From NCBI GenBank assembly GCA_963850905.1, contig CAWKMU010000003.1:2816001-2880000 (forward strand): a stretch of 64,000 nucleotides of DNA, read 5' to 3'. The notes beneath the pieces were generated by a model. The model was not told where the DNA came from and did not search any database. It was given only the letters and a program-made list of their open reading frames with translations. Shown here in pieces: positions 8,449-43,112 of the stretch. This DNA is from an uncultured Gemmatimonadales bacterium (GTDB lineage: Bacteria; Gemmatimonadota; Gemmatimonadetes; Gemmatimonadales; Gemmatimonadaceae). The position numbers and the translations under genes are program-made. Each line of letters starts with the position of its first letter. Position 1 is the stretch's first letter.

Positions 8449-8486
8449 AGGCGCCGGTTGTCAGGACCGGTGCCGTAGGGGTCGAA

Positions 8487-10477
<1,991 letters not shown>

Positions 10478-10509
10478 GGGCGGCATGAATCGCCGCTGAG
10501 TCCGCGCAC

Positions 10510-20541: not shown

Positions 20542-20906
20542 TCGTGAGCCATTCAGTCCTCATCTGTGACGATGCCATTTTCATGCGGACCATGGTGGGT
20601 GATATCCTGCAGCAGGCGGGATTCGACATCGTGGGCGAGGCCGAGACGGGTCTGCAGGCGGTCGAGAAGTACAAGCAGCTTCGCCCGGACCTCGTCACTA
20701 TGGACATCGTCATGCCCGACATGGGCGGGATCGATGCCGTCCGGGAGATCACGAAGTTCGATCCCCAAGCCAAGATCCTGATGTGCAGCGCGATGGGACA
20801 GCAGGCGCTCGTCGTCGAGGCCATCCAGGCGGGCGCGCGGGATTTTGTCGTGAAGCCCTTCCAGCCCAGTCGCGTGCTGGAAGCGGTTCAGCGCGTGCTC
20901 GGCTAG
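20538..20906 (+). CDS. cheY: Single-domain response regulator CheY
   Basis: CDDAIFMR, MDIVMPDMGG, CSAMGQQ, VKPFQ; Bacillus/Thermotoga/archaeal-like CheY pattern. Confidence 0.95.
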   Translation: MIVSHSVLICDDAIFMRTMVGDILQQAGFDIVGEAETGLQAVEKYKQLRPDLVTMDIVMPDMGGIDAVREITKFDPQAKILMCSAMGQQALVVEAIQAGARDFVVKPFQPSRVLEAVQRVLG

Positions 20907-20960
20907 GGTGACGATGCGTCGTCCCTGGTTGGTCGAGTAGGGGCGACGCATGCGTCGCCC
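20903..20960 (+). repeat. Two tandem GTAG-family REP-like palindromes between cheY and cheA
   Basis: Perfect GTAG GGGCGACGCATGCGTCGCCC at 20937-20960; degenerate CTAGGGTGACGATGCGTCGTCCC at 20903-20925 containing the cheY stop. Confidence 0.8.
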
Positions 20961-21003
20961 CCGTTCGGACGACTAGGCGTCCGGGTCGCCCGGCCTCGCA
21001 CGC

Positions 21004-23118
21004 ATGGACGCAGCGCAATACGCCGATCTCTTCCTGACCGAGAGTCGTGAGCACCTCTCGGCCATCAATCTCGCCCTACTCGATATCGAGCGTGGGCTGA
21101 CTGCCAACCCGCCCGCCGGTGACGCGGTCGCGGCGGGCTCCGGGTCCGAAGGCGGTGGAAGCAGCGAGGGCATCGCCGCCGCCGTGGCATCGCTGTTCCG
21201 GGCCGTTCACACCATCAAGGGAATGAGCGCGACGCTGCGCTACGACGCAGTGGCTGCTCTGTCGCACGAGCTCGAAGCCCTTCTCGACCGGCTGCGGCGT
21301 GGAGAGCTCGCGCCCGACGCGAACCTGATGAATATCCTGTTCGCTGCCGCGGATCTGCTCGAAGCATCGATCGAGCGAGCCGTGGCGGGCCAGCCAGATG
21401 ACGCGCGTCTCGAAGAAGTTGTTGGTCGCATTCGACGGGCGGCGGCCGCGCGGCACGAACCAGTGAACGGTCGCGCCGCGCCTGGGCGCAAGACGTCTCG
21501 TGCGAAGCGCGCGCCGCCCGCTCGTCGATCACGAGCGGGCGCCAGAGGTGCCTCGCGAGGAAAGGCCACGAGGCAGCGGGTGCGCCCCGCCGTGCCGCGA
21601 GACGATGCCGCAGGCGGAGCCGAGACGATCGTACGGGTCCACCTGGCCGCCGCAGCGACGTTCCGCGCGGCGCGGGCTGCCGTGGCCGTGCAACGCGCGC
21701 GGGCGCTGGGGGACGTGCTCGGCGTGAGCCCCGTGCTGGAGACCGTGCCAGCGGATGGTCCTGGGCCGGAGGTGATCGAGATCCGTCTGCGCACGCAGGC
21801 GAAGACGGCGGCCATCGTCGGGCAGATCGAGGGGGCAGGGGACGTCGCGCGCGTCGAGGTGCGTCGCGATCGAGTCCGCGGGGGTACGCGACCCGGCCGC
21901 CATTCCGGAGCCGCCCGGCACTCTGCCAACGGCAACGGCGACAGCGGCGCCGATGGCATCGCGCGAACGCGACACGTGCGAATCGATCTGCGACGGTTGG
22001 ACGCGCTCATGGACTTGATCGGCGAGTTGGTCATCGCACGTGGCCGCCTCGTCGAGCTCACGAGCACCGAGGAAGAGTCCGCGCTGAGCGAGGCGGTCGC
22101 CGATGCCAGTCGGTTGATCGGAGACCTGCAGCAGGAGATCATGACCTGCCGGATGGTGCCCGTCTGGCAGGTCTTCGATCGATTCCCTCGCCTGGTACGC
22201 GACACCGCCCAGGTGCTCGGGAAGCAGGTCAGTTTCGAAGTCGAGGGCAAGGACATCGAGCTCGATCGGTCGATGCTCGACGAGATCGGGGATCCGATAG
22301 TCCACCTGCTGCGGAATGCGTTGGATCATGGAATCGAGCTGCCGGACACGCGGGTTGCCGCCGGTAAGCCGCCTCAGGGCCACTTGACGCTGAGCGCTGC
22401 ACGCGACCGATCTGCCGTGCTGATCCGGGTCACGGACGATGGGCGTGGGATCGACCGAAACAAGGTGCTCGTACGTGCGCTCGAGTCTGGGCTCGTGGAC
22501 CCTGGGACGACCGCACTCAGTGACGACGAAGTGATCCGGCTGATCGCGCGCCCGGGCTTCACGACGGCCGAAGAGGTGACAGATGTGTCGGGTCGGGGCG
22601 TCGGCATTGACGCGGTCCAGGCCAGGGTTCGGGCGTTGGGTGGCTCCATCGACATCAAGAGTGCGGCCGGTGAGGGGACCACGGTGACCGCGCGGCTGCC
22701 GCTCACCCTTGCCATCATGCGGGCGCTGCTCGCCCGGGTCGGACGAGAGGCTTATGCCTTTCCCATGGCCCACGTCGACGAAACGGTTGGTACGGAAGGG
22801 GCAAACTATGCGGCCGTGCGCGGTCGCCCAGTGATCGTGATCCGAGGGGAGGCAATCCCCTTCGTGAGGTTGCGTGATCTGGTCGGACTCGAGCCGGCCT
22901 CGAGCCCGGTGCCGACCCCCGATCCCGAGCAGCATGTCATTGTCGTCGAGTCGGGTGGCCATCGGGCCGCAGTCGCGGTCGACGAGCTGATGGGGCAGGC
23001 CGACATCGTCGTGAAGCAGTACGACCATGTGCGCGGCGGTGCGGCGTTGTTCAGCGGAGCCACAGTCCTCGGGGACGGAGCACCCGCCTTGATCGTCAAT
23101 GTGAGCAGCCTTTTCTAG
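21004..23118 (+). CDS. cheA: Chemotaxis histidine kinase CheA
   Basis: HPt FRAVHTIKGMS, dimerisation VRIDLRRLDALMDLIGELVI, N-box HLLRNALDHGIE, DDGRGID, SGRGVG, LPLTLAI, P5 FSGATVLGDG. Confidence 0.96.
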   Translation: MDAAQYADLFLTESREHLSAINLALLDIERGLTANPPAGDAVAAGSGSEGGGSSEGIAAAVASLFRAVHTIKGMSATLRYDAVAALSHELEALLDRLRRGELAPDANLMNILFAAADLLEASIERAVAGQPDDARLEEVVGRIRRAAAARHEPVNGRAAPGRKTSRAKRAPPARRSRAGARGASRGKATRQRVRPAVPRDDAAGGAETIVRVHLAAAATFRAARAAVAVQRARALGDVLGVSPVLETVPADGPGPEVIEIRLRTQAKTAAIVGQIEGAGDVARVEVRRDRVRGGTRPGRHSGAARHSANGNGDSGADGIARTRHVRIDLRRLDALMDLIGELVIARGRLVELTSTEEESALSEAVADASRLIGDLQQEIMTCRMVPVWQVFDRFPRLVRDTAQVLGKQVSFEVEGKDIELDRSMLDEIGDPIVHLLRNALDHGIELPDTRVAAGKPPQGHLTLSAARDRSAVLIRVTDDGRGIDRNKVLVRALESGLVDPGTTALSDDEVIRLIARPGFTTAEEVTDVSGRGVGIDAVQARVRALGGSIDIKSAAGEGTTVTARLPLTLAIMRALLARVGREAYAFPMAHVDETVGTEGANYAAVRGRPVIVIRGEAIPFVRLRDLVGLEPASSPVPTPDPEQHVIVVESGGHRAAVAVDELMGQADIVVKQYDHVRGGAALFSGATVLGDGAPALIVNVSSLF

Positions 23119-23142
23119 GCCGACCCGCGGGAGCCGCTACGC

Positions 23143-23763
23143 ATGGATGACATTCGATCGCTGAAGGCGCACCAACTCGATGCCCTCCGGGAAGTTGCTA
23201 ACATCGGCGCGGGTCACGCGGCGACCGCCCTGTCGCAGATGACCGGCGGCACGATCATGATCAGCGTGCCGACGATCAACATCGCGCGCCTCGAGGACGT
23301 GCCGCCCCAGATCTCGGGCCCCGAAGAGCCGGTCGCGGCCGTGCTGATGAACATGCTCGGTGACCTGACCGGACGGACGTTGCTGGTATTCCCGCACCCG
23401 ACCGCGGTGCGACTGTCGGAGATCATGCTGAGCCGGCCGCGCGGGGGAGATTTCGAGCTGGGCGAGATCGAGCAGTCGGCGATCAAAGAGGCGGGCAACA
23501 TCCTGAGCGGCGCCTACCTCAACGCGCTCAGTGAGTTCATGGGCCTGATGCTCCTCCCGTCACCCCCGAGTCTCGCCGTGGATATGTCGAGCGCGGTGTT
23601 GACGACGGCGTACCTGCAGTTTGGGACGGATCGCGACTACGTGTTTTGCGTCGAGACGGAGTTCTTCATGCAGGAGCTGAAGGAGCGCTTGCGCGGCTTC
23701 TTCCTGCTGCTGCCTGACGTCGCCTCGCTCCACGCGATCCTGCGCGCCGTCCGCGTCGCCTGA
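23143..23763 (+). CDS. cheC: CheC-family CheY-P phosphatase
   Basis: Two ExxN motifs (LREVANIGAGHAATALS; IKEAGNIL), PSPP, FFLLLPD. Confidence 0.93.
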   Translation: MDDIRSLKAHQLDALREVANIGAGHAATALSQMTGGTIMISVPTINIARLEDVPPQISGPEEPVAAVLMNMLGDLTGRTLLVFPHPTAVRLSEIMLSRPRGGDFELGEIEQSAIKEAGNILSGAYLNALSEFMGLMLLPSPPSLAVDMSSAVLTTAYLQFGTDRDYVFCVETEFFMQELKERLRGFFLLLPDVASLHAILRAVRVA

Positions 23764-23784
23764 CGCGAGCGCGGGGGCGGTGGC

Positions 23785-26556
23785 GTGACCGCAACGCGTC
23801 CGAACAACCTGCTCTCTGAACGGGACCGCGAGGTCCTGCGGTCGTTCGCACGGCGCATCGATCCCTCGGACGCCGGCGCGCACAACAACCTCGGAGTCCT
23901 CTACTACCACAAGGGTCTGTACGAGGAGGCCGTCGCCGCGTTCACGCGAGCGCTCGAGCTGGACTCCAAGATGCGCGTGGCGCAGCGCAATCTGGAGATC
24001 GCGTACTTCAGCACCGGCTACTACGATCGTCGCGTCGCGACGCTGCGCGACCGTCTGCGTGCCGCGCCGGAGGACCGGGACGCCCGGTGGGAGTTGGGCC
24101 GCGCGTACAGCCTCCTTGGCCGGTTCGCCGAATCCACCGCTGAATTCGTCGAGCTACTCAAGCACCATCCCAACGATCTCGGCGCCCTCGTCCAGTTGGG
24201 CCTGGCCGAAAAATCGTCGGGTGACCTCGAGCAAGCCCAGACCTGGTTCGAGCGGGCACTCGCGTTGGATCCCGAAAGTCCCGTCATTCTCTTTTACATC
24301 GGCGAGGTCCTGTACAATCGTGGGTTGAACGACGAGGCGTTGGTCGCACTCGAACGCGCCATTGCGGCGCATCCTGACAACCCCGATGCGCACTACCTGA
24401 TGGGCTTCGTGCTGGGCGACATGGGTCGTCACGAGGACGCTCGTCAGGCAACCAAGCGCGCCGTGCAGCTCAACCCGGCGTTGTCGAGAGCGCAGACCAA
24501 TCTGTCGCTCGACGAGTCGGCCCTCGCCAAACCGGCACCCGCGTCCGAAGCGACGAATCGGCTGGCAGAAGCCGCGATGACCGTGGCCGACGAGGGCGCG
24601 CTCGCGCATTTCAACCTCGGACTCGCCTTTCGGCAAAAGGGCTATTACGCCGAAGCGTTGCATGAATACGAGCTCGCGCTCACACGCGGGGAGGAGCGGG
24701 GCCTCGTCCAACAGGCAATCGCCGAAGTGCACCTGCTCCGACGGGATGTCACCGGCGCCGTGGCGGGGTACGACCTGCTCCTCGTCGACCATCCGACGAG
24801 TCCGAAACTGTGGAACGAGCGCGGTGTGGCCCTCCACCAGGATGGCCGCTACGAAGAGGCCGCACACAGCTACCGGCGCGCCATCGACTGCGACGCGCAC
24901 TACGCGATCGCCCACAACAATCTCGGTGTGGCGCGCTATCACGCGGGTGAGCCGGATGCCGCGGCGGAATCATTCGGCGCTGCCTTGCAACTGGTGCCCG
25001 GGTTCGCGCACGCGCGGTTGAACCTCGCACTCCTGCACTTCAAGGCAAAAAGGCTCCCGGCGAGCTTGGAGTCGTACCGCCGGGTGCTGGCCGACGAGCC
25101 CGAAAATGCCGCGGGATGGAATGGAGTCGGGCTGGTCCTGACGGAGCTGCGTCGGTTCGACGAGGCGCGCAATGCTTTTGCGCGTGCGGTACAGAGCAAA
25201 CCCGGGTACGCGGAGGCCCGCTACAACCTGAGTTTTGCGCTGTCGAACCTCGGCGAGTTCGATGCGGCCCTTCGCGAGACGAAACGCGCGATTGAGCTCG
25301 ATCCCTACTACGTGCCGCAAAAATTCGAGCTGGCGATCGACTTCCAGTATGAGCATCCCGAGCTCTCGATCGTGCCGGATCTGGGGGGCGCCGCCCGCGC
25401 CGACGAGCATGCCATCGCCGATTTCGCGTTCGATCCGTCGCTCCTCGACTCGCTCTTCACCACGCTGACCCCGGCGGCTGGCGTCGAAGCGGTGCAGCCC
25501 CTCGGTCCCGACCCGTACGGCATTGCGCTCGACTACCTGTCGAAAGGGATGTACGAGCGGGCGACAGCCGAGGTCAGTCGCGCGCTGCTCCGCGGAGCCG
25601 ATCGCGCGAGCGGCATGACGATCCTCGGGGACTTGTTCCAGCGCCAGGGCCTCCATGGCGAGGCGTTGGATCGATACCGCGACGCGCGGCGGACGAATCC
25701 GGGTGCCGCTCGAGCGCTGGCCGGCGAAATTCGCGCGCTCGTCGCGCTCGGACGTGGCGCGGACGCTCGATCCGCCGCCGATGAGCTCCTGCACGTGGCC
25801 CCGAACGATACCGATGCACTGCTGGCCGTCGCGGCCGCACGGGCGAGTGGCGGAGATCCCACCGGCGCCCTCGCGTTGCTCGAGACCGCGAAGGGCCTCG
25901 CCCCAGAGCGGGCCGACGTGCTGCACGCTGTCGGTGATGTGAGCCGGGACGCCGGCGACACGGGGAACGCCGTCGCCGCTTATCGTGCCGCACTGGTCCT
26001 CGACCCCGAACGCGCGGTCATCCGTTACGAGTTGGCACGGCTGCTCGCCGCGACCGCCAACGTGGCTGAGGCGGAAGCAGAGCTCCTCGCGGCACTGGAA
26101 CAGGTCCCCACGTACGCACATGCCACGCTGGCACTGGCCGATCTGTGGCGCACCTCCGGTCGCACCGCCGAGGCGATCGACCTGCTGGTCGGGCTGCTCG
26201 AGCGCGACCGGTCGCACGTCGATGGGCTGTTGGTCTTGGGAGAACTGCTGTTCGATGCCGGGCGCCGGCGCGACGCCGCCCGCGTGTTTGCCAGGCTCCT
26301 CGTGGTCGATCCAGCGCATCCCGGCGCGCTGTATTACGGCGGCGCGCTCCTCGCGGATCAGCACCGCTATCGAGAGGCGATTGAGCGCTGGGATGCCGTG
26401 ATCGCCACGCAGCCGGACGGGCTGTTTGGCCAACGCGCGCGCCGGGATCGACGAACCGCGAGAGACCTCGCACACATCTTCGTGCGCCGCCAAGAGACGC
26501 AGGGCGGTGGGCTGGGCGCGGTGCAGGCGGAACTCGCGTTCGGGAGGGCCAGCTAG
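23785..26556 (+). CDS. Large cytoplasmic multi-TPR protein (923 aa)
   Basis: Many TPR units (AHNNLG..., AHFNLG..., ARYNLS...); no signal peptide; acidic non-TPR insert centrally. Confidence 0.9.
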   Translation: MTATRPNNLLSERDREVLRSFARRIDPSDAGAHNNLGVLYYHKGLYEEAVAAFTRALELDSKMRVAQRNLEIAYFSTGYYDRRVATLRDRLRAAPEDRDARWELGRAYSLLGRFAESTAEFVELLKHHPNDLGALVQLGLAEKSSGDLEQAQTWFERALALDPESPVILFYIGEVLYNRGLNDEALVALERAIAAHPDNPDAHYLMGFVLGDMGRHEDARQATKRAVQLNPALSRAQTNLSLDESALAKPAPASEATNRLAEAAMTVADEGALAHFNLGLAFRQKGYYAEALHEYELALTRGEERGLVQQAIAEVHLLRRDVTGAVAGYDLLLVDHPTSPKLWNERGVALHQDGRYEEAAHSYRRAIDCDAHYAIAHNNLGVARYHAGEPDAAAESFGAALQLVPGFAHARLNLALLHFKAKRLPASLESYRRVLADEPENAAGWNGVGLVLTELRRFDEARNAFARAVQSKPGYAEARYNLSFALSNLGEFDAALRETKRAIELDPYYVPQKFELAIDFQYEHPELSIVPDLGGAARADEHAIADFAFDPSLLDSLFTTLTPAAGVEAVQPLGPDPYGIALDYLSKGMYERATAEVSRALLRGADRASGMTILGDLFQRQGLHGEALDRYRDARRTNPGAARALAGEIRALVALGRGADARSAADELLHVAPNDTDALLAVAAARASGGDPTGALALLETAKGLAPERADVLHAVGDVSRDAGDTGNAVAAYRAALVLDPERAVIRYELARLLAATANVAEAEAELLAALEQVPTYAHATLALADLWRTSGRTAEAIDLLVGLLERDRSHVDGLLVLGELLFDAGRRRDAARVFARLLVVDPAHPGALYYGGALLADQHRYREAIERWDAVIATQPDGLFGQRARRDRRTARDLAHIFVRRQETQGGGLGAVQAELAFGRAS

Positions 26557-29006: not shown

Positions 29007-29473
29007 CGACGGCCGTCGTCGAGAAGTGGATTGAAGGCCCGCTGCGGCAATTCGTCGAGGATGCGCATGTGTTGCTCGCCCTCATCCTGACGCCAAGTGG
29101 CCAGGTCCTGGCGCAACACGGGTTCTCCCGGGCCGTCGACGTCATGTCGGCCTGCGCGCTCGCCGCGGCGATTCATGCGTCGGGCGGCGAGCTGGGTCGT
29201 CAATTACAGGGGCGGCCGTTTGGCGGGTTGCACCATTCCGGTACGGCGCGGCAGTTGTTCCTCGCGGCAGCCGAGACGCGGCGGGGTCTCTTGCTGTGCC
29301 TCACGGTGTTTGACGAGGCGACGTCGTTTGGCCTCGTGCAGCTGTACTTCGATGAGTTGCGGATGCACCTGGCTGACGCCGCGCCCGTATCAGAGACGCT
29401 GCCACCCGCCGTCCTGGCCGAGACCTTCGAGCAGGATCTCGACCGCAATCTCGCTCTCCTCTTTCGCCGATAA
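29003..29473 (+). CDS. mglB: MglB-like roadblock protein with C-terminal helix
   Basis: SGQVLAQHG, ALAAA...LGRQL...FGGLHHSG, VFDEATSFGLV (cf. MglB FDNRTSLGLV), acidic C-terminal helix FEQDLDRNLALLF; directly upstream of mglA. Confidence 0.78.
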   Translation: MTTAVVEKWIEGPLRQFVEDAHVLLALILTPSGQVLAQHGFSRAVDVMSACALAAAIHASGGELGRQLQGRPFGGLHHSGTARQLFLAAAETRRGLLLCLTVFDEATSFGLVQLYFDELRMHLADAAPVSETLPPAVLAETFEQDLDRNLALLFRR

Positions 29474-29477
29474 GCCC

Positions 29478-30125
29478 GTGCCGCTCGTCAACTACGCCAC
29501 GCGCGAGATCACGTGCAAGATCGTCTACTACGGCCCGGGGCGGTCGGGGAAGACGACCAACTTGCACTACATCTACGGCCAGGTTCCGACCGATCGCAAA
29601 GGGCGCATGGTATCGCTCGCGACCCAGACGGACCGCACGTTGTTCTTCGATTTTCTCCCCCTCGATCTCGGCACGATCTCTGGTTTCACGACCAAGATCC
29701 AACTCTATACTGTCCCGGGCCAGGTGTACTACCAGACGACACGCAAGCTCGTGCTCCAGGGCGCGGACGGCGTGGTGTTCGTGGCGGACAGTCAGGCGCG
29801 CCAGCTCGAGGAGAACATCGAAAGCCTGCAGGACTTGCACGCGAACCTGGCGGAGCACGGCATGGACGCGCGGGTCGTGCCGCTGGTGCTGCAGTACAAC
29901 AAGCAGAATCTCCCCGCTGACCTCATCCTCGACGTCGCGGCACTCGACGATGCGCTCAACTTTCGGAACGTGCCGTCGTTCCCGGCCGATGCGCTGCACG
30001 GACCGGGCGTATTCGAGACGCTGCGCGGCATTTCCGAGCTCGTCCTGAAACGATTGAGTGGTCCGGGCCGGCCCGTCGGAGCCGGTAGAAGCTCGTCACC
30101 GGCGGCCGCCGGCACGCGGCGCTAG
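29478..30125 (+). CDS. mglA: Small Ras-like GTPase MglA
   Basis: VNYATREITCKIVYYGPGRSGKTTNL, TDRTLFFDFLPL, LYTVPGQVYY, RKLVLQGADGVVFVADSQ. Confidence 0.95.
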   Translation: MPLVNYATREITCKIVYYGPGRSGKTTNLHYIYGQVPTDRKGRMVSLATQTDRTLFFDFLPLDLGTISGFTTKIQLYTVPGQVYYQTTRKLVLQGADGVVFVADSQARQLEENIESLQDLHANLAEHGMDARVVPLVLQYNKQNLPADLILDVAALDDALNFRNVPSFPADALHGPGVFETLRGISELVLKRLSGPGRPVGAGRSSSPAAAGTRR

Positions 30126-30138
30126 CGGAGGGACGTCG

Positions 30139-32112
30139 GTGCAGCTGGACGAGCGATATCGCTTCGACAACTTCGTCGTTGGCTCTGCCAACCGGCTGGC
30201 GGCAGCTGCCGCTCGAGCTGTGGCCGAAGCCCCGGGCACGACCTACAACCCGCTCGTGATCTACGGGGCGACGGGCCTCGGGAAGACGCACCTGCTAGGC
30301 GCCATCGGCAGCCACGCCGCCAGCCTCCAGCCCGGCTTGCATGTGGACGCACTCGCGCTGGACGAGTTTGTGCGTCAGCTCCACGCGGCCGTATCGGTGG
30401 GCGAGGTCGATGCTTTTCGACAGCGGTATGCGCACGCCGACATGCTCCTGATCGACGATATCCAGTTCCTCACGGGCCGGCGGGAGACACAGACGGAGTT
30501 GCTGCGGTTGTGCCAGTCGCTGCAAGACAGCGGACGCCAGATCGTATTGACCAGCGACCGCCCGCCCACCGAGATCACGGATGTGGACGATCGCCTCGTC
30601 GCACGGCTGGCGGGTGGTCTGGTCGTCGACATCGGAGTCCCGGACTATGAGACGCGGGCTGCAATGCTCGCGACCTGGTGCCAGGAGCGGAGCGTGCAAT
30701 GCGGGCCCGGTGTCATCGAGGAGTTGGCGCGCCTCGATCTGCGCAACATTCGTGAGCTGCAGGGCGCGCTGACTCGCGTTGTCGCATACCAGACTCTCGG
30801 GCCCAATGGACGAACGATCGAGGTCAGTGACGTGCGTCGGTTGTTCGCGGCCCAGTCCGAGCGGCGTCGCACGGACACACGAGGGACCGGTGAGCCGCGC
30901 ACGCCATCCGCCAATGGTGCCGCGCCGGAAGCGGGTGAATACCTGAATTTCCTGTCCGACATGGCCAGCGCGGTCGCCCAGCATGTCGAGCCGTGGCGCA
31001 TGCAGCTCGCCGAGGCAGCGGCGTACTGGGCGGGCGAGGGGTATCGACCGGCAATCCTCGAGCGCGCGCTGCACGCGAGTGTGGACCCTGGAAGCGAAAG
31101 CGTGCTCAATGCCTACGTCGCGACGATTGAGCGCCTGCGCGCGCTCGAGACGGAGGTCCTGCAGATCGACCCGTCCGTGGCGGGCACTGACGTCTTCCGG
31201 GATCCGGAGCGTGTCGCCGAAGCCGAGGGATTGTTGACCCGTGTGCGCGCCGGCACCACTCCGCCTTCGGGGCCATCGACCGAGTTCACCCGTCGTGGCT
31301 TTGCGGTGGGCAACTCCAATGAGCTGGCGGTGCGTGCCGCGGATGCGGTCGTGTCGGAACCGGGCCGCCGGTTCAATCCGCTCTTCGTCCACGGACCGAG
31401 TGGCGTCGGCAAAACGCATCTCCTCAATGCGATCGGCAACGGGCTCGTGGCCGCACGACAGGGTCGCAGTGTCGTGGCGTGCGTGGGCGCCCAATTACTC
31501 ATCGATGAGCTGATCGATGCGCTGCGAGAGGGACAGGTAGAACGGTGGCGGCGCCGCTACCGGGCCACGGATGCACTGCTCATCGACGACGTCCATTTCC
31601 TGGCAGGGAAGGAGCGGACGCAAGAGGAGTTCTTTCACGTCTTCAATGACCTGTACGCCGCCGGCAAGCAGATCGTGCTGACGAGCGATCGCCCGCCGCA
31701 AGCGCTGGCGGAGCTCGAGGGACGACTCCAGTCACGGTTCGCGGGAGGTCTCGTGGCGGAAATCCAACCGCCGGACCACGACCTGAGAGAGAAGCTCTTT
31801 ACCCACTACCTCAGGACCACGACCGCCGGCCGTGACACTGCACTGGCCGAGTACCTCGCCGCGCAACCCGTTGCGAATGCGCGTGAGATCCTCGGAGTGG
31901 TCAATCGCCTGGCCGCCGCCGCGGAGATGGCGGCCGTGTCGCTCACCCTCGATTTCGCTCGGACCCAGCTGGAAGCCGGAGGAACCGCGGACCCGACGCC
32001 CCCTCAGGCACTCGTGACGTCCCCGGGCCTGGATCCGTACTTCCTGGACGCCGAGCGTGTCATCTGGGAATGGCCCGAGCCGGCGGGGCGTGTCATTGAG
32101 GAGTGGCGCTGA
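30139..32112 (+). CDS. Tandem DnaA-like AAA+ protein (two domain-III copies, no domain I/II or IV), 657 aa
   Basis: Copy 1: YRFDNFVVGSANRLA, YNPLVIYGATGLGKTHLL, LLIDDIQFL, TSDRPP, RLVARL, NIRELQGAL. Copy 2: FAVGNSNELA, FNPLFVHGPSGVGKTHLLNAIGN, LLIDDVHFLAGKERTQEEFFHVFN, TSDRPP, RLQSRF, NAREILG. SD GGAGGG before the GTG. Confidence 0.92.
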   Translation: MQLDERYRFDNFVVGSANRLAAAAARAVAEAPGTTYNPLVIYGATGLGKTHLLGAIGSHAASLQPGLHVDALALDEFVRQLHAAVSVGEVDAFRQRYAHADMLLIDDIQFLTGRRETQTELLRLCQSLQDSGRQIVLTSDRPPTEITDVDDRLVARLAGGLVVDIGVPDYETRAAMLATWCQERSVQCGPGVIEELARLDLRNIRELQGALTRVVAYQTLGPNGRTIEVSDVRRLFAAQSERRRTDTRGTGEPRTPSANGAAPEAGEYLNFLSDMASAVAQHVEPWRMQLAEAAAYWAGEGYRPAILERALHASVDPGSESVLNAYVATIERLRALETEVLQIDPSVAGTDVFRDPERVAEAEGLLTRVRAGTTPPSGPSTEFTRRGFAVGNSNELAVRAADAVVSEPGRRFNPLFVHGPSGVGKTHLLNAIGNGLVAARQGRSVVACVGAQLLIDELIDALREGQVERWRRRYRATDALLIDDVHFLAGKERTQEEFFHVFNDLYAAGKQIVLTSDRPPQALAELEGRLQSRFAGGLVAEIQPPDHDLREKLFTHYLRTTTAGRDTALAEYLAAQPVANAREILGVVNRLAAAAEMAAVSLTLDFARTQLEAGGTADPTPPQALVTSPGLDPYFLDAERVIWEWPEPAGRVIEEWR

Positions 32113-33743
32113 TGGCGATCCGCGGTAGCCTCCGCGAGGCGAGCTTGCCCGATGTGCTCCAGTTGCTTGCCATGGGCAAGAAGACGGGCTGCTTGAGCGT
32201 CACCCATCGCGACAACTTCGGCTACGTCTACTTCGACCGTGGTCGCATCGCCTTTGCATCGATCGTGAACCGCAGAGACCGACTTGGCGACCTCCTCGTC
32301 CAGGCCGGGTTGTTGACCCACGAGCAGCTCGATGTGGCGATTGAAACGCAGCACGAACAGCCTGACCGGCGTCTGGGAGAGATCCTCATCGGCCTCGGGT
32401 ACGTCACGCGTGAGGCGCTCCACGACCAGGTGCGCACGCAGATCGAGGAGGCGGTGTACTTCCTGTTCACGTGGTCGCACGGCACGTTCAGCTTCGAGCC
32501 CGACGTCCGCCCTGACGAACACGGCTTTGTCGTGTCGATCAATCCTGAGTCGCTACTCCTCGAGGGCGCGCGGCGTGTCGACGAATGGGGGTTGATCGAG
32601 AAGAAGATCCCGAGCTTCGACCTGGTGTTTCATGCCGATCGCGTGCGCCTGCACGAGAGCGAAGCCACGCTGACGCCAGCGCAGCGCACCGTCGTGAACC
32701 TGCTCGATGGCGAGCGCGACGTGCGCGCCATCATCGAGGACTCCGGGCTCAGCGAGTTCGAGATCGCCAAAGCGCTGTACGGGTTGGTGTCGGCCAGCTT
32801 CGTGCGGCGAGTCGGGCGGACCCGCGCGGCAGAGCCAGCGGTATCGGATGCGCGGGTGGACGAGCATCGCAATCTCGGCATTGCGTTCTACAAGACCGGC
32901 ATGCTCGATGAGGCGATGCGGGAGTTTCGTCGCGTCGCGGAGCTTCGGCCGGCCGATGCCGCGGCAGCGTTCTACATCGGTCTCGTCCACATGCGGCAGG
33001 GCAACTGGCCCGCGGCGGTCGACGCCTGCCGGGAGGCGAGCGCGCCACCGTCACCAGGAGCGGCTGCGCTACACAACCTGGCGTACGCGTTGGAACGCCT
33101 CGGGCAATACGACGCGGCGGAAACGGCGCTCGAGCAGGCGGTGGCGCGGGGAGGCGGTGACGACCCGCGCGTTCGTACATCGCTGGCGGTGCTGGCACTT
33201 CGGCGCGGCGACCTGGCCGATGCCGAGGCGTTGCTGGCGGGCGCACGGGCTGCGTGGGGCACGCGTCGGCCGCCTGCCGCCTGGTACCATTACGCCGGAT
33301 TGACCAGCGCCCTGGCCGGCCAACTCGATCAGGCCGTGGCGCTCCTGGAAGAGGGCCTCGGACACTATCCGCACGCAGGGGTGCTGTACAGCAACCTGGC
33401 CGCCGTCCAGGAGCGTCGCGAGGCGTTGGCCGAGGCGGCCGTCGCGGTGGAGCGCGGATTGCAAGAAGACGCGGCGATCGCGCAGCTCCACAAGATCGCG
33501 GGTGATCAGGCCTATCGAGCGACGCACTACGACGAAGCGCTCGACGCATATCAGCGCGCGGCGCGCATCAATCCCTCGCTCGGCAGTGACCTCTATCTGA
33601 GGATGGGGAACATTCGGTATCGGCGCGGGGAGATCGACGCAGCACTCGAGGCGTGGGGACGGGCGCTGGAGATCGATCCCGGCAACGCCATTGCGCGCAA
33701 TAACATCGAGGCGGTGCACCGGACGGCTGGTGCGCCCGCGTGA
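32112..33743 (+). CDS. DUF4388 protein with tandem MshEN motif and C-terminal TPRs
   Basis: MAIRGSLREASLPDVLQLL...KTGCL; RLGDLLVQAGLL...Q...RLGEILIGLGYV...Q; LLLEGARRVDEW; multiple TPRs; TGATG overlap with the DnaA-like gene. Confidence 0.88.
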   Translation: MAIRGSLREASLPDVLQLLAMGKKTGCLSVTHRDNFGYVYFDRGRIAFASIVNRRDRLGDLLVQAGLLTHEQLDVAIETQHEQPDRRLGEILIGLGYVTREALHDQVRTQIEEAVYFLFTWSHGTFSFEPDVRPDEHGFVVSINPESLLLEGARRVDEWGLIEKKIPSFDLVFHADRVRLHESEATLTPAQRTVVNLLDGERDVRAIIEDSGLSEFEIAKALYGLVSASFVRRVGRTRAAEPAVSDARVDEHRNLGIAFYKTGMLDEAMREFRRVAELRPADAAAAFYIGLVHMRQGNWPAAVDACREASAPPSPGAAALHNLAYALERLGQYDAAETALEQAVARGGGDDPRVRTSLAVLALRRGDLADAEALLAGARAAWGTRRPPAAWYHYAGLTSALAGQLDQAVALLEEGLGHYPHAGVLYSNLAAVQERREALAEAAVAVERGLQEDAAIAQLHKIAGDQAYRATHYDEALDAYQRAARINPSLGSDLYLRMGNIRYRRGEIDAALEAWGRALEIDPGNAIARNNIEAVHRTAGAPA

Positions 33744-33753
33744 GGACCGCGCG

Positions 33754-34575
33754 GTGATCGGTCAGGACGCCGAGAGCGACGAGTCGTTCGACGCGCTGCT
33801 CGCGAAGATTGCGCGCGATCGTGAGTTCGAGTGTGGCAGCTACAAGGTGCGCTGTCTGCGTCGTCGCATCGCGGTCCGACTCCGTGCGCGCAACGTGGCC
33901 ACGTACGAAGAGTACGCCGCGCTGCTCGATGCGGACCAGCGTGAATACGAGAAACTGCTTGACGCACTGACTATCAACGTCACGAAGCTCTTTCGTAACT
34001 GGGAGACCTACGCCGCGCTCGAGCGCCACGTCGTACCCGCTCTCTGGTCGGCGTCGGACGAGGCCCTGCGCGTGTGGAGCGCCGGGTGTGCGTCCGGAGA
34101 AGAGGCGTACTCGCTGGCCATTCTGTTCCACCGGCATGCGGCAGCCGCAGGCCAGGAACGCCACCTGGATCGCCTGGGCGTGACCGGGACCGACATCGAT
34201 CGGGACAGTCTGCAGGCAGCAGCGCGGGCCGCGTACGTCGAGTCGGCCTTTGCCGACACCCCTGCCGAGATCCGGCGCGCCTATTTCAGCGGTGGCTCGC
34301 CGGCGGTGGTCGATCCGCGCATTCGGGCGCTCGTCCACTTCTCGTCCCACGACCTGATCCGGCACCCGATGCCCAGCGACCAGCATCTCATCGCATGCCG
34401 CAACGTCGTCATCTACTTCGATCGCCCCGCGCAAGAACGGCTTTTCCAGCGCTTTCACGCCGCGCTCGCCCCCGGGGGATTTCTCGTCCTCGGTAAGGTC
34501 GAGACGCTGCTCGGCCCGACGCGGAGCCTCTTCACGGCGATCGACGCGCGCGAGCGGATCTTTCGGCGTGCCTGA
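33754..34575 (+). CDS. cheR: Protein-glutamate O-methyltransferase CheR
   Basis: LTINVTKLFRN, RVWSAGCASGEEAYSLA, GTDID, CRNVVIYFD, GFLVLGKVE. Confidence 0.95.
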   Translation: MIGQDAESDESFDALLAKIARDREFECGSYKVRCLRRRIAVRLRARNVATYEEYAALLDADQREYEKLLDALTINVTKLFRNWETYAALERHVVPALWSASDEALRVWSAGCASGEEAYSLAILFHRHAAAAGQERHLDRLGVTGTDIDRDSLQAAARAAYVESAFADTPAEIRRAYFSGGSPAVVDPRIRALVHFSSHDLIRHPMPSDQHLIACRNVVIYFDRPAQERLFQRFHAALAPGGFLVLGKVETLLGPTRSLFTAIDARERIFRRA

Positions 34576-35107
34576 CTCGCGTGCGGCCGCTCGCTTGGGT
34601 CAGCGCCTCGTTGCGGGCCCTGGCGCCGTGGAGGCCATCCGGGTGCGGGTGGCCGATTACGCGGTCGCATCGGGTGACGCGATCATCGCGACGCTCGGAC
34701 TCGGCTCGTGCGTGGCGATTGCCATCCACGATGCGCGCGCACGCGTCGGCGGGCTCGCCCACGTGTTGTTGCCCAACGAGAGCATGTCCCGGGATCGCAG
34801 CAACGGCGCGAAGTTTCCCGCGACCGCCGTCCCGCTTCTGCTGAAGGAAATGCGCGCGCTCGGTGCACGCGGCCCTTTCACCGGCCGACTGGTTGGCGGG
34901 GCCAGCATGTTCGCCGCGCTGCTCCCGATCGGCGGCGTGAACATGGGGCAGCGCAATGTCGACGCGGCGCGCCGGGCGTTGGTGGATGCGGGAGTCGCAA
35001 TTGTGGCCGAGGATACTGGCGGAGGATACGGCCGCAGCGTCTACCTCCACGTCGGCGACGGGAAGATGGTCGTCAAGTCGCTGGTCAATGGCGACCGTGA
35101 GCTCTAG
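34568..35107 (+). CDS. cheD: Chemoreceptor glutamine deamidase CheD (start may be further downstream)
   Basis: TLGLGSCVAI, GGLAHVLLP, GGASMF, GQRN, EDTGGGYGRSV. Confidence 0.95.
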   Translation: MPDSRAAARLGQRLVAGPGAVEAIRVRVADYAVASGDAIIATLGLGSCVAIAIHDARARVGGLAHVLLPNESMSRDRSNGAKFPATAVPLLLKEMRALGARGPFTGRLVGGASMFAALLPIGGVNMGQRNVDAARRALVDAGVAIVAEDTGGGYGRSVYLHVGDGKMVVKSLVNGDREL

Positions 35108-36240
35108 CGCCGGAGTCAACCACGCGACGGAGGCGACGAGCGGTGAGCGCGTGCGCCCCCGCACCGTGTTGGTCGTGGATGACAGTGCGTTCATGCGGCG
35201 CGTGATCAGCGACATGATCGGCTCTGCTGCCCCCGAGTTCCGCGTCGTCGGCACGGCGCGCGATGGCGCGGACGCGCTGAGGCAGATTCACGGGCTCGAG
35301 CCCGACATTGTGACCCTCGACATCGAGATGCCGGTGCTGGACGGCCTCCGGGCCCTGGCGCAGATCATGGCCGACGCTCCACGGCCGGTGGTGATGCTGA
35401 GTGCAGCAGCGGGGGGCAACAACGCCGAGCTGACACTCAAAGCGCTCGAGCTCGGAGCGGTTGACTTCGTACGCAAGCCGTCAGGCCCGGCGCGACTGGA
35501 CCTCTCGACCGTCCGCGAGCGGTTGTTGAGCGCCCTTCGTGCGGCGGCGATCGTGAATCTCGGCGGGGTCAAGCCGCTCACGGACGGCGCGGATGTCGTC
35601 GCCTCCGGGGCTGCGCGCTCCAGCAGCGCCGATTGGGTGGTCGTCGTCGCAGCGTCCACGGGCGGCCCACGCGCCCTAGCGGAGATGATCCCCGCAATGC
35701 CACCCGCCATTGGGGCGGCGGTGCTCGTCGTGCAACACATGCCCGGTGGGTTCACACAAAGCCTGGCGCACCGGCTGGACCGCGCGAGTCGCCTCCGGGT
35801 TGGCGAAGCCACGGCCGATGAGCTCATCGTCAACGACCGGGTCTATCTCGCCCCGGGGGGATTTCACATGCGCATCGGGCGGCGCGACGGGCAGCCCGTT
35901 GTGGCGCTCGACACGAGCCCCCCGATGTGGGGCGTCCGGCCCGCGGCCGATCTGCTGTTCAGCAGTGCGGCGGAGGCATTCGGCCCGCGCGTCATCGGTG
36001 TCGTGCTGACCGGCATGGGTCGCGACGGTGCGCAAGGGCTCCGTGCGATCCGAGACGCGGGTGGGCAGGGCGTCGTCCAAGATCAGAATGACATCGATCG
36101 TGTTCGGCATGCCGCAGGCTGCGCTCTCGGTCGCTGGAGCCGACCGCGTCGTCCCACTCTCGGACGCAGCGAGCGCAATCCTCGACCTCATGCGAACGGC
36201 ACGCGGGTTGGTCGCCGGTGACCGAGGCATGGGATCATGA
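35088..36240 (+). CDS. cheB: Receiver + methylesterase CheB; +1 frameshift at ~36087
   Basis: VVDDSAFMR, LDIEMP, catalytic ASTGGP, QHMP, LTGMGRDG; C-terminal TSIVFGMP lies in the +1 frame. Confidence 0.93.
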
Positions 36241-36771
36241 CCGCGGGCCATCGGGGTGCTCGCCCCTCGGCGGAGACGAGGGCCGTCGGTGCCGGCGCAT
36301 CGCGGGCCCCGCTGCCGGAAGCGAGTTGTTGATCTTCCGGGCAGGTGACGAGCGGTTTGCCATGGCGGTCAGCCCTCTCGAGGCAGTCATCCGAGATGCC
36401 CAGGTTGCAGCCGCTGCCCGGCATGCCCGCCGGCATGATCGGCGTCGCGGAGCTCCGCGGCAGTTTGATACCGGTCTATTCGCCCGCTCGCGTGCTGAAT
36501 GTCAGCGTGGACCAGCCGGCCGCCGCGATTATCGTCCGGCTGGGGCGGGGTGGAACGTCGGGTGCGGGGCGTCGAGCCGCCATCGCGGTGACCGCAGCGG
36601 AGGGTGTCACCGTTTACGAGCCAGATGCTTGGAGTGGCGTGGGCGGGCCGACTCCGACAGCAGGCCTCGTGCGCGGGGTGACGACGGTCGAGGGACAGCT
36701 GACAACCCTCGTGGACGCGATGGCATTTCGTTGCCGCCTGCATGGACGGGTCATTTCGGGAGGACGCATGA
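36218..36771 (+). CDS. cheW: CheW-like adaptor 2 (degenerate); +1 frameshifts at ~36391 and ~36727; start uncertain
   Basis: LLIFRAGDERFA...EAVI / EMPRLQPLPGMPAGMIGVAELRGSLIPV; the corrected end AFVAACMDGSFREDA* overlaps the next ATG. Confidence 0.7.
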
Positions 36772-37319
36772 CGACGAGTGCCGCTCGTGGCGCGAGACCG
36801 CTGGCGACCGAGCACATGCCGTCGGGTCACGACGCGATGCAGATCGTCACCTTCCGCATCGGGGCCGACCTCTTCGCAGCCGACGTCAGAGCCGTCGAGC
36901 GCGTGCTCCGATACCAACCTGCGACCCCCCTCCCTGAGGTGCCGCCGTGGGTCGCCGGCGTGCTCGAATACCAGCAGCGCGTCGTGCCAGTGATCGATCT
37001 GCGGGTGCGATTCGAGGTGGCTGGGGCGAGTCCCTCGCCCGACACCCGGATCATCGTCTTCAATACGAATGGTGCGTGGACAGCCGGAGTGGTGGATGCG
37101 GTGTTGGACGTGAGCGCGATCGAACGGAACCGTCTTGAAGCGCCACCGCCGCTGCTGAATGGGCTCTCCGCCGAGTACCTGCACGGCATTGTCCGCCGCG
37201 AGGGGCAGCTCGTGTTGTTGCTCAACGCCAATCGCGTGTTGTCATCGACCGACGAGCGACTCCTCGCGACGCGCATCGCCGAAATGACGCCGAGTAAGCG
37301 GGGAACGCGGCGTGTCTGA
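36768..37319 (+). CDS. cheW: CheW-like adaptor 3
   Basis: QIVTFRIG, TPLPEVPPWVAGVLEYQQRVVPVIDLR, GVVDAV, YLHGIV; own SD GGAGG. Confidence 0.85.
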   Translation: MTTSAARGARPLATEHMPSGHDAMQIVTFRIGADLFAADVRAVERVLRYQPATPLPEVPPWVAGVLEYQQRVVPVIDLRVRFEVAGASPSPDTRIIVFNTNGAWTAGVVDAVLDVSAIERNRLEAPPPLLNGLSAEYLHGIVRREGQLVLLLNANRVLSSTDERLLATRIAEMTPSKRGTRRV

Positions 37320-38204
37320 CAACGCCGTAGCACCTCCCGCTCGCCAGAGCGAGCTCCGAAGACGGTATGCGGCGATTGAAGCGCGGCTCGACACTGGGGA
37401 TGCAAAGGACGGCGACCTCCGGGCCCAGCTGAAGGCTGAGATCGTCGCCCTCTACCGCACGGTCGATCAGCAGCTCACCGAGCTCGGGGCCCTCAAGGAC
37501 GAAATCCGCCGGCTCGTCGACAAGTGGAAGGCCGCGGCAGCCGGAAGTGGCCACCAACGCGCCGCAATTCAACGGCGAGCGACCGGTCGCGGTGCACGTC
37601 GATCACATCGGCGCCTCGACATTCATCGAGAAGGGTTGGAGCCGGATTTCCCTCGGCGATTACGAGGGGGCCGAAGCCGCGTTGAAGAAGGCGCTCGAGC
37701 TCTCGCCCAACGACCCGCAGTCCGAGTCGTTGCTGGGGTGGGCGCAGATGCTGCAAGACAAGTACGACGATGCGCTCCTGAACTTCCAGCGGGTGCTTGA
37801 TGCGCCAGCCTGCGAATGCACTCGCGCGCATCAATGTCGGCTATATCTGCCTCAAGAAGCGCATTTTCGGCGAGGCGATCGAGCATCTGTCCAAGGCGAT
37901 CCGTCTCGACAATGACCGGAAAGCCACGCTTTACGCACACTTCTATCTCGGGCTCGTGTATCTGGAGCGCGAGATGTTCGAGGACGCGCAGACTTTCTTT
38001 CAGAAGACGCTCGCCCTTGGGCCTAATCTGATCGAGGCGCATTACGAGCTCGGCCGGGCGCGCTGGTTCGCGGGCGACCGCGACGGCGCCATGGAGACTT
38101 GGCGCGCCGGCTACGCGGCGAACAAGTTCAATCCATGGGGCAAGCGGTGCGCGGAAGTGCTCGAGGCGGTGGCGGCCGGAGGCGAACCACCCCGCACGTC
38201 CTGA
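37312..38204 (+). CDS. Coiled-coil + TPR protein; two +1 frameshifts (~37543, ~37797)
   Basis: Three consecutive ORF pieces (37312, 37547, 37797 frames) join into an N-terminal helical region plus ~5 TPRs. Confidence 0.75.
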
Positions 38205-39278
38205 GCATCGGCGGAGGTGTCCTGAGGGGGCGGACACCGAGGCCGCGCCGCCTGCGGCGCACATCATGGCTCCTCTGCCTCGCGATGGTCCTCGCCGGGC
38301 CTCGCCTCGCAGATGGCGCTCTTGCGGGACAGACGCCGACTCGTCCAGCAACAATTGATACAGTTCCGGTACGCTTGGACGGGGGTCGCTTTTCCGTAGT
38401 CACTGAGCCCAAGGACATGCGGCTGGCAAAGTCGCTCCTGGGGTCGGCGCTCGCGCACGATACCTTCCCCGGGCTCCCGCGACCGCGCGCCCACGTCGTC
38501 ATCGCGATCGCGCCCGACGCGCACCACTTTCGAGCCTGGTCGGGTCCAGCTGCGCCCGAATGGGGCGCGGCGGTGGCATTTCCCGACGCGCAGCGCGTGG
38601 TCGTGCAAGGCGGCTCGGCGACGTCGGCGGCGGGCGATCCGATTCCGACGCTTCGCCACGAGCTCGCCCACCTCGCGCTCCACGAATACCTGGGCGACTT
38701 GGCCCCTCGGTGGTTCGACGAAGGCTACGCCATGTACGCGGAGGGCGGGCCCGGCCGCGATGACATTCTGGGGACCAACGTCGCACTCGCCCTGCGCGGC
38801 GTGCCGACGCTCGCCTCGCTCGACACCGGACTGGTGGGGGCCGAAGGCCAGGCCGCCGTCAGTTACGCATTGGCCTATCGTGCGGTCGCCGACCTCGCGC
38901 ATCTCGGATCCTGATCGCGGGCTGACGCTCCTGTTTCGTTACTGGCGGGAGTCCGGCTCGCTCGACGTCGCAGTTCGGAGAGCGTACGGCGAGCCGCTGG
39001 ACACGTTCGAGTCAGCCTGGCGCGCCCACACGCGACACCGGTATGGCGCACTCGCCCTGGTCTCAGACCTCTCATTTGCGACCGCAGTGTTTCTCGGGCT
39101 TCTGACACCGCTGTATCTCGCGCGGCGCCGGCGTGACCGGGTGCGGCTCGAGGCGCTCCGCGAAGCCGAGGCGGCGGCCGACCGGGTCCGGCTCGCGGTA
39201 GCGCTCTCGGGGAATGGCCAGCAGCCGGACGGCGGCCCGGATAGCCCCCGAGGCGGCCGGTCGGAGGTGGCCAGCTAG
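38201..39278 (+). CDS. Peptidase MA-like (gluzincin) exported/membrane protein; +1 frameshift at ~38906; start uncertain
   Basis: LRHELAHLAL, PRWFDEGYA, N-terminal hydrophobic signal, C-terminal TM followed by RRRRDR. Confidence 0.75.
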
Positions 39279-43108: not shown

Positions 43109-43112
43109 TTTG

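Follow-up and report, generated by a model that had tools for sequence, protein, structure and literature searches.

AAA+ proteins of the DnaA type assemble head-to-tail via Arg fingers and their modules build open helical filaments, whereas classical tandem AAA+ proteins form stacked hexameric rings. Hda (HdaA), the regulator acting in RIDA (DnaA's regulatory inactivation), is a DnaA-related AAA+ protein that lacks a DNA-binding domain and combines one module with an N-terminal clamp-binding motif of the QL[SP]LPL type. Among polarity systems, Myxococcus MglA is described as activating or placing type IV pili together with a TPR effector, and a bioRxiv preprint (10.1101/2021.06.11.447907) states that PATAN binds the N-terminal domain of PilB1 in Synechocystis and that MglA/MglB genes are frequent neighbours of PATAN genes. 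Here we describe a gene from an uncultured Gemmatimonadales bacterium, located in a 64,000-nucleotide window (contig CAWKMU010000003.1, positions 2,816,001 to 2,880,000), that encodes a tandem DnaA-domain-III protein, named dDnaA here, with modules 1 and 2 referred to as M1 and M2. dDnaA is not an initiator and is not Hda; it is best read as a DnaA-derived, non-initiator tandem AAA+ protein that is a dedicated subunit of the MglA/MglB-PATAN-TPR-Che signalling module of Gemmatimonadota, and the output of this module, by analogy, is probably the control of type IV pili. Searches of open-access papers and bioRxiv returned no account of any tandem DnaA-like protein with a connection to MglA, PATAN or pili. 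Fold and motifs were known before; the architecture, the predicted docking peptide and the gene context are new.

Both dDnaA modules share with DnaA domain III its fold and all of its nucleotide motifs. These include Walker A (GATGLGKT at residues 43-50 of M1, GPSGVGKT at 419-426 of M2), Walker B (LLIDD at 103-107 and 480-484), sensor I (TSDRPP at 138-143 and 515-520), the Arg-finger segment (RLVARL at 152-157, RLQSRF at 529-534) and sensor II (NIRE at 203-206, NARE at 580-583). The initiator-clade helical insertion between Walker A and B (the initiator-specific motif, ISM) is present as well: M1 aligns without gaps to Bacillus subtilis DnaA in this region, and the ISM helices of the dDnaA model span residues 74-87 and 90-98 in M1 and 451-463 and 467-475 in M2. 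The region is shorter in some distant family members (P0194, P0228, P0230, P0238). Identity between the two modules is 39%; compared with domain III of the DnaA encoded in the same genome it is 44% for M1 and 42% for M2. A PDB search matched M1 to B. subtilis DnaA (E 1e-53, ungapped over 218 residues) and M2 to T. maritima DnaA (E 2.4e-45). An AlphaFold2 model built from a 73-sequence alignment has a mean predicted local distance difference test (pLDDT) score of 89.1, and Foldseek places each module on 8bv3_A with a root mean square deviation (rmsd) of 1.4 Å over 234 columns (TM 0.94 of the target) and on 2z4r_A at 1.8 Å. An earlier interpretation made from the letters alone (the sequence-only reading) had described two complete domain-III modules; every motif that it quoted was located, and the superpositions on B. 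subtilis DnaA bear the description out. Its expectation for a Pfam scan likewise held, with two Bac_DnaA stretches recovered (E 9.7e-110) and both DnaA_N and Bac_DnaA_C absent at E<=0.01. The GTG start is preceded by GGAGGG 8 nt upstream, and the stop of the upstream gene lies 13 nt before it. A longer form beginning at 30058 was rejected, as it would overlap the 3' end of mglA and homologues start at the residue matching 30139.

Unlike DnaA, dDnaA has two modules per chain, begins 2 residues ahead of domain III and lacks domains I, II and IV; it adds a middle helical domain and a predicted C-terminal docking peptide, and its gene lies in a Che/MglA/PATAN operon apart from canonical dnaA. The latter (DnaA_N + Bac_DnaA + Bac_DnaA_C) was found on the same contig at G000:C3 ~1.0 Mb, ~1.8 Mb from dDnaA. 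The conclusion of the sequence-only reading that the protein is not an initiator is upheld by the missing domains I and IV and by this separate gene, which that reading had expected elsewhere in the genome. A PF00308 search of the whole genome (estimated 82% complete) returned only dnaA and the two dDnaA modules, with no Hda-like third gene. dDnaA does pass the NCBIfam DnaA model TIGR00362 (504.4 bits, cut-off 343.9), but this score is misleading, being the sum of two domain-III stretches that cover profile positions 103-330 only. The Hda model TIGR03420 gives 156.6 bits over two stretches, under its cut-off of 194.8, and PDB matches to Hda reach only E 2e-4. A regular-expression search of the whole protein, whose N-terminus is MQLDERYRFDNF, found no clamp-binding motif of the QL[SP]LPL type, as the earlier interpretation had stated. 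dDnaA shares with Hda a DnaA-related AAA+ core without a DNA-binding domain and differs in having two modules and no clamp motif. The p97/Cdc48, Rix7 and ClpB proteins resemble dDnaA in carrying two AAA+ modules per chain, often with one site degenerate, but they belong to another AAA+ clade (Foldseek TM 0.24-0.28, identity 14-17% to dDnaA).

The segment between the modules had been taken for a ~140-aa largely helical linker. It consists instead of a disordered stretch (residues 251-282) followed by a conserved, confidently folded helical domain (residues 283-372), which reaches a pLDDT of 82.8 when folded on its own. Foldseek returned no match to this domain at E<=0.001, and VIA-align gave generic helical matches only (best Z 6.1, well under the level meaningful for helical bundles); an ESM Atlas search yielded no usable match, and a word-based search with residues 258-385 retrieved 15 relatives only, all of them tandem proteins of the dDnaA family. 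Residues 616-629 are also predicted to be disordered, and the tail comprises 28 residues with a pLDDT of ~60. The description of this end as a short aromatic tail in place of the helix-turn-helix (HTH) is correct as to the HTH; the chain, however, runs past ...WEWP with EPAGRVIEEWR, and residues 630-657 form one conserved motif. An HTH in linker or tail had been named as an observation that would overturn the non-initiator interpretation, and none was detected in connector, middle domain or tail (Pfam, Foldseek, VIA), by methods that cannot exclude DNA binding by a helical bundle.

Conservation among 73 aligned dDnaA members distinguishes what the family retains from what it tolerates losing. 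Throughout the family, selection has preserved the nucleotide site of M1, the middle domain, the peptide at the C-terminus and the position next to the PATAN-PATAN-TPR gene; only some members retain what equips DnaA to form a filament that melts DNA. The M1 Walker A lysine K49 and the first Walker B aspartate D106 are each present in 73/73, and the M2 nucleotide site is degenerate in 12/73. Near-invariant positions around the middle domain are F271, L272, G301, L307, L333, D355, P356 and A362. The C-terminal motif, the most persistent one of the family, is conserved at E639 (65 of the 73), K/R640 (68), W645 (68), P646 (60), R651 (55), E654 (61) and E655 (57), and it is retained in 16 of 18 short forms that lack the M2 lid. 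The Arg finger is lost from M1 (R156) in 19/73, from M2 (R533) in 9/73 and from both in 5/73; the M1 site and M2 finger are kept together in 64/73, the M2 site and M1 finger in 40/73. A composite active site assigned from these pairings was considered and dropped, since the 12 members with a dead M2 site retain the two fingers in 12/12 and 11/12 cases.

Single-stranded DNA (ssDNA) binding by B. subtilis DnaA needs I190, K222 and T225, and its finger is R264, as given in a bioRxiv preprint (10.1101/2022.03.18.484894). These positions map to H82, R114, T117 and R156 in M1 and to I459, K491, T494 and R533 in M2. The ssDNA triad is present in 13/14 ordinary DnaA controls. Position 82 of M1 is His in 31/73 and is never mainly Ile or Val. 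In M2 the triad is kept by 20/21 close relatives (>=50% identity), all 21 of which also have the finger, and among the 52 distant relatives I/V is found in 28, K/R in 18 and T/S in 18.

In 20 loci from 20 genomes dDnaA adjoins the PATAN2-TPR gene without exception, and the full order CheY-CheA-CheC-TPR-PATAN_TPR-TPR_Robl-Robl-MglA-dDnaA-PATAN2_TPR-CheR/D/B is found in 18/20, where dDnaA comes after mglB-mglA within a Che operon. In the remaining two, both from family f7 genomes, the dDnaA/PATAN2-TPR pair is intact and mglA lies elsewhere in the genome. PDB matches identify the GTPase encoded upstream of dDnaA as a genuine MglA (5ymx of M. xanthus, E 2.9e-71; 3t12 of T. thermophilus, E 2.3e-64). 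The module has the same parts as the Myxococcus MglA-SgmX/FrzS module and the cyanobacterial PATAN pilus regulators, namely MglA, an MglB-like GTPase-activating protein, TPR, PATAN and a Che-type pathway; in the literature searched those systems have no DnaA-like ATPase, whereas in the Gemmatimonadota module it is a fixed component.

Because the dDnaA tail ends in an acidic ...R-L-I-E-E and the operon is rich in TPR proteins, a complex of dDnaA with its invariant neighbour was predicted, with the PATAN-PATAN-TPR protein (19-row alignment) and dDnaA residues 258-657 (73-row alignment) as input, alongside controls. The interface score ipSAE was 0.82 in 3/3 runs, the best of three controls scoring 0.00, with contact agreement of >=73% and partner pLDDT of >=75. 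Among solved complexes 116 of 157 attain the ipSAE mark applied, and among mismatched pairs 2 of 215 do so, a calibration that is rough here since our own alignments were used. The predicted interface is confined to exactly dDnaA 624-657 (I642, W645 and 651-653) and the concave TPR face, residues 263-497, of the partner, where conservation is higher in the groove (0.67) than at the other TPR residues (0.58; permutation p 0.009). TPRs of the PEX5 or Hop type bind C-terminal peptides, and the TPR of the PATAN-PATAN-TPR protein resembles PEX5 and Hop by sequence. The dDnaA C-terminal peptide (W645, I642 and the terminal R-V-I-E-E) is predicted to sit in its neighbour's TPR groove in a PEX5/Hop-like manner. 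The complex with the adjacent DUF4388 protein had been proposed for modelling by the sequence-only reading, and its score against the controls supports binding, as a prediction.

The same partner carries a candidate second-messenger site. Residues 60-112 match NF053729, an MshE-related motif binding cyclic di-GMP (c-di-GMP), with 55.5 bits (cut-off 38), and residues 59-107 of the PATAN-TPR protein encoded further upstream (26556-27710) score 34.8 bits, slightly under that cut-off. The motif falls in the helical insertion of the PATAN domains, and the PDB matches are to the N-domains of PilF (6f8l) and MshE (5htl). The PATAN-TPR proteins may be c-di-GMP receptors.

Table 1. Position and supporting evidence of dDnaA, its parts and the surrounding genes; positions are those of the window.
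Feature	Position	Strand	Evidence and remarks
dDnaA gene	30139..32112	+	657 aa, GTG start, ribosome-binding site, two Bac_DnaA matches, no HTH, >120 full-length homologues
Module 1 (residues 1-245), complete DnaA-type AAA+ with lid	30139..30873	+	PDB 8bv3 E 1e-53, ungapped; Foldseek rmsd 1.4 Å
M1 key residues			K49, D106/D107, R156 (finger), R205 (sensor II)
Disordered, poorly conserved connector (residues 251-282)	30889..30984	+	pLDDT <50, gappy alignment columns
Middle helical domain (residues 283-372), conserved, specific to the dDnaA family	30985..31254	+	pLDDT >90
Middle-domain motifs			EF..FL, W..EGYRT, FRDPD..A
Module 2 (residues 381-613), DnaA-type AAA+ with lid	31279..31977	+	PDB 2z4r E 2.4e-45
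M2 key residues			K425, D483/D484, R533 (finger), R582; I459/K491/T494 = ssDNA triad of B. subtilis DnaA
C-terminal peptide motif (residues 630-657), ..FLD.E[KR]..W.WP....R[LV][IV]EE..-COOH	32026..32109	+	conservation, predicted interface
CheW, CheY, CheA, CheC/X, 923-aa TPR protein (upstream part)	19888..26556	+	Pfam, synteny
PATAN(DUF4388)-TPR	26556-27710	+	Pfam; order in 18/20 loci
TPR-Roadblock	27568-28662 (true start probably later)	+	Pfam; order in 18/20 loci
Roadblock	28614-29006	+	Pfam; order in 18/20 loci
mglB-like Roadblock gene	29030..29473 (start approximate)	+	third-position GC content (GC3) 0.79 in frame; PDB MglB 6h5b_B E 9.1e-7
mglA (215 aa)	29478..30125	+	ends 13 nt before dDnaA start; frame analysis
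PATAN(DUF4388)x2-TPR (546 aa)	32103..33743	+	start overlaps dDnaA stop by 10 nt; Pfam DUF4388, TPR
CheR, CheD, CheB, CheW-CheW, small TPR proteins, MA-family peptidase (downstream part)	33691..38914	+	Pfam, synteny

The coordinates of dDnaA, its parts and the neighbouring genes are collected in Table 1. The mglB-like gene is masked by two longer spurious open reading frames (28406-29473 and 29097-30125), and GC3 by frame recovers the classic mglB-mglA order; its match to NF052242 (E 7e-4) is under the cut-off of that model. Three Roadblock-domain proteins are encoded in the cluster (27568-28662, 28614-29006, 29030-29473). Two mglA paralogues are seen in some genomes (G067, and G097, a genome flagged unpublished), one beside dDnaA and 62-70% identical to that of the window, the other elsewhere and 57-62% identical. 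PilB- and PilT-like genes are present in the dDnaA genome. The genome's four MCPsignal genes, encoding methyl-accepting chemotaxis proteins (MCPs), all lie outside the window (G000:C3 2306671, 2679241, 3277704, 3548137). A division and cell-wall cluster (a penicillin-binding protein (PBP) transpeptidase with PASTA, murE, murF and mraY) occupies 43110-49157 (+), ~5 kb downstream of the signalling cluster.

The tandem arrangement is not peculiar to this genome. More than 120 protein clusters are full-length dDnaA homologues with 100% query cover and 55-94% identity, and an exhaustive search of representatives extends the full-length relatives down to 28-31% identity. Named close homologues come from Gemmatimonadaceae metagenome-assembled genomes (MAGs) and bear the labels 'DnaA/Hda family protein', 'DnaA ATPase domain-containing protein' or, at JGI, 'chromosomal replication initiator'; the named members of distant clusters are Gemmatimonadales or Longimicrobiales. 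In a sample of 200 Gemmatimonadota genomes, which together with the named cluster members defines the taxonomic range given here, 131 hold a dDnaA match stronger than E 1e-60, a threshold that we set, single-module matches to ordinary DnaA having fallen at 1e-48 to 1e-60. Four of the 131 are flagged unpublished (G157, G182, G057, G097), and the count is 127/196 when they are set aside. By family the matches number 26/38 in f1 (that of the window), 94/96 in f2, 3/3 in f3, 4/4 in f4, 1/1 in f5, 2/23 in f7 and 1/3 in f8, with 0/32 among the sampled genomes of f6 and f9-f12. Within the window's family the shorter form lacking the M2 lid is confined to a single genus, and several further families have it too.

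In trees of the modules, M1 and M2 form separate clades (SH-aLRT 99 and 100) with matching sub-clades; these were quick IQ-TREE runs with SH-aLRT as the only support, no outgroup, no Hda sequences and no taxon-labelled DnaAs. Because the two clades have the same internal groupings, the trees point to one old fusion without shuffling of modules, and by these comparisons the fusion is real, single and old. The phylogeny proposed in the sequence-only reading is in this way obtained for the two modules among DnaAs, with Hda outside the trees, and the fusion artefact that it had allowed for, with homologues existing only as two separate genes, is contradicted by the full-length fused homologues and the congruent trees. 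Two-piece versions occur in L032 (G127, 7770-11013) and L033 (G198, 8971-10940). The break in L032 is a frame change within the connector and the adjoining PATAN-TPR gene is broken as well; we read the two-piece versions as assembly indels or as pseudogenes in decay and not as natural separate genes, for L033 tentatively. At L030 (7421-9055) the dDnaA gene, the PATAN-TPR gene of the pair or both are interrupted by a frame change or internal stop. Two metagenome proteins depart from the standard layout. P0226 (738 aa), a family member placed in the M1 clade, has a module 2 that is degenerate and ends in a response-regulator receiver domain where the others carry the tail motif; on its domain content, it is a direct fusion to two-component/Che-type signalling. 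P0178 (673 aa) has two Bac_DnaA modules followed by a Bac_DnaA_C HTH; its modules are mutually closest (support 96), as though a protein that is otherwise like DnaA had recently undergone an internal duplication.

DnaA cores without HTH are joined to similar partners in other bacteria. A type IV pilus cluster of a Candidatus Fermentibacteria MAG (L036, 3050-20058), which includes the 1,990-aa match P0159, encodes proteins with MshEN and Bac_DnaA in the order pilD, four consecutive MshEN proteins, a TonB_C protein, pilB, one unassigned gene and pilT. DnaA domain-III modules are found in three of the four MshEN proteins (983, 409 and 1,993 aa), two of them in the 1,993-aa protein, and eight clusters of 1,867-1,999 aa share the MshEN + Bac_DnaA make-up. 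Precomputed Pfam lists add ~40 clusters (~1,360 or 2,150-2,480 aa) with TPR + Bac_DnaA, and the two scanned, P0363 and P0356 of Candidatus Sumerlaeia, consist of a TPR array of ~1,100-1,900 aa followed by a C-terminal Bac_DnaA and no HTH. Zinc-ribbon domains are combined with Bac_DnaA in P0328 and P0325. The MshEN-fused modules form their own clade among DnaAs (support 89) apart from M1 and M2, so they and dDnaA appear to be separate recruitments. Like dDnaA, these proteins link a domain III lacking the HTH to c-di-GMP-binding MshEN domains or to TPR arrays; they differ in that the link is by fusion and the middle domain is missing, whereas in dDnaA it is by the predicted docking peptide. No literature description of MshEN-Bac_DnaA or TPR-Bac_DnaA proteins was found.

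We consider it moderately probable that dDnaA serves an MglA/Che polarity module as an ATP switch or as an assembly factor, and that it is tethered there to a PATAN-TPR adaptor that senses c-di-GMP. M1 would be the obligatory nucleotide switch, because its site is invariant, and M2 an auxiliary or regulatory site allowed to decay in some lineages. ATP binding or hydrolysis would shift the conformation or oligomeric state of dDnaA, the shift would alter the state of the TPR-PATAN adaptor, which may also sense c-di-GMP via its MshE-type motif, and the likely output would be to govern cell polarity and the activity of type IV pili. Pili and polarity are suggested by the binding of PATAN to PilB in Synechocystis, by the activation of pili through MglA with a TPR effector in Myxococcus and by the place of the Fermentibacteria parallel in a pilus cluster. 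One suggestion of the sequence-only reading, a repurposed polar ATPase switch tied to MglA/Che and the DUF4388 protein, fits both the conserved synteny and the predicted tail-TPR contact.

The lead idea of that interpretation was instead a covalent pseudo-dimer that caps, seeds or inactivates DnaA filaments under MglA/Che control. In such a scheme a dDnaA face would join the end of the ATP-DnaA filament at oriC and cap or seed it or stimulate hydrolysis, coupling initiation to MglA/Che/c-di-GMP. The modules are indeed far closer to DnaA than to Hda, both in identity to the genome's own DnaA and in their PDB matches, and the window protein has both Arg fingers; we regard this reading as unlikely but keep it in view because M2 of the window's clade has the full ssDNA triad and finger (I459, K491, T494 and R533, retained in 20-21/21 close relatives) and no Hda was found as a third PF00308 gene in the genome at its estimated 82% completeness. 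Against it, the context is all signalling and polarity in 20/20 loci with no replication gene nearby, and the features needed for joining decay in distant members, where the M1 finger (19/73), the M2 finger (9/73) and the M2 ATP site (12/73) are lost, the M2 ssDNA triad is found in just 18-28 of 52 and M1 position 82 is His in 31/73. The best-conserved family-specific features, the middle domain and tail, have no counterpart in DnaA biology, and with no link to replication the capping or inactivation of filaments cannot be upheld as the leading idea. The same M2 triad could serve a DNA-anchored positioning ATPase, in which ATP-bound dDnaA would bind ssDNA, DNA or the nucleoid via M2 as a scaffold that places or segregates a cytoplasmic Che/MglA/TPR complex, much like the ParA-type ATPases PpfA and ParC, which are encoded in che operons. 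Characterised members of the initiator AAA+ clade known to us assemble on DNA, the gene lies within a Che operon devoid of an MCP gene in cis, and the tail, if it docks as predicted, would tether the cargo. We rate this lower again, as the ssDNA residues are not conserved across the whole family, searches of the middle domain and the tail revealed neither an HTH nor a domain that binds double-stranded DNA, and short forms with a degenerate or lidless M2 nevertheless keep the tail and the context.

The remaining alternative leaves the tethered ATPase-adaptor complex as it is and changes its output from motility to cell division or envelope growth, or to that of a STAND-like ATP-gated oligomeric signalling hub. 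The PBP, murE, murF and mraY genes of the division and cell-wall (dcw) cluster lie ~5 kb downstream in this window, a conserved MA-family peptidase follows the signalling cluster, the TPR + Bac_DnaA fusions resemble the NTPase-plus-TPR layout of STAND proteins, and PatA is reported to interact with the divisome in Anabaena (PMC7380572). The proximity to dcw genes, however, is an observation from one genome, that of the window; MglA, MglB, PATAN and the MshE-type motif indicate pili or polarity in studied systems, and the Fermentibacteria parallel lies within a pilus cluster. We judge this the least probable of the readings considered.

The tethered-switch reading has its own difficulties, and the following observations weigh against it. 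To our knowledge every characterised member of the initiator AAA+ clade acts on or assembles on DNA, and M2 of the window's own clade still retains the DnaA ssDNA triad and finger. Conservation gives no clean assignment of finger to site, as M2-dead members keep the fingers (12/12 and 11/12) and 5/73 are without both, and the pTM of 0.54 reflects a model in which the domains are confident and the mutual arrangement of M1 and M2 is not. The docking result is a model confidence: many solved structures show a peptide in a TPR groove, and the score may partly reflect likeness to them; the cluster also holds at least 5 further TPR proteins as candidate alternative partners for the tail. Finally, no MCP is encoded in cis with the Che cluster (19888-37319), and no pil gene lies within the window, the link to type IV pili being an analogy with cyanobacteria and myxobacteria.

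Taken together with the fused proteins of other phyla, the dDnaA family admits a broader proposal, which we offer tentatively as possible. On more than one occasion the DnaA AAA+ core may have been turned into a signalling ATPase that helps to control polarity and type IV pili. In Gemmatimonadota dDnaA, as a covalent unit of two modules, would act downstream of MglA/Che: its C-terminal peptide would plug into a PATAN-TPR adaptor that senses c-di-GMP, and polarity switching would thereby gain a timer or an assembly step driven by ATP. In Fermentibacteria and Sumerlaeia the core would be fused to MshEN or TPR. The phylum of dDnaA has cultivable members, and the predicted peptide-TPR contact is precise and cheap to test. 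For annotation, pipelines label dDnaA 'chromosomal replication initiator DnaA', and genomes wrongly seem to hold a second initiator. If the proposal is true, the initiator AAA+ clade would gain with dDnaA a functional class new to it, which acts on proteins and not on DNA. This clade is seen as DNA-bound machinery, and dDnaA would show its fold as a protein-signalling switch, adding an ATPase to the GTPase-centred MglA paradigm of cell polarity.

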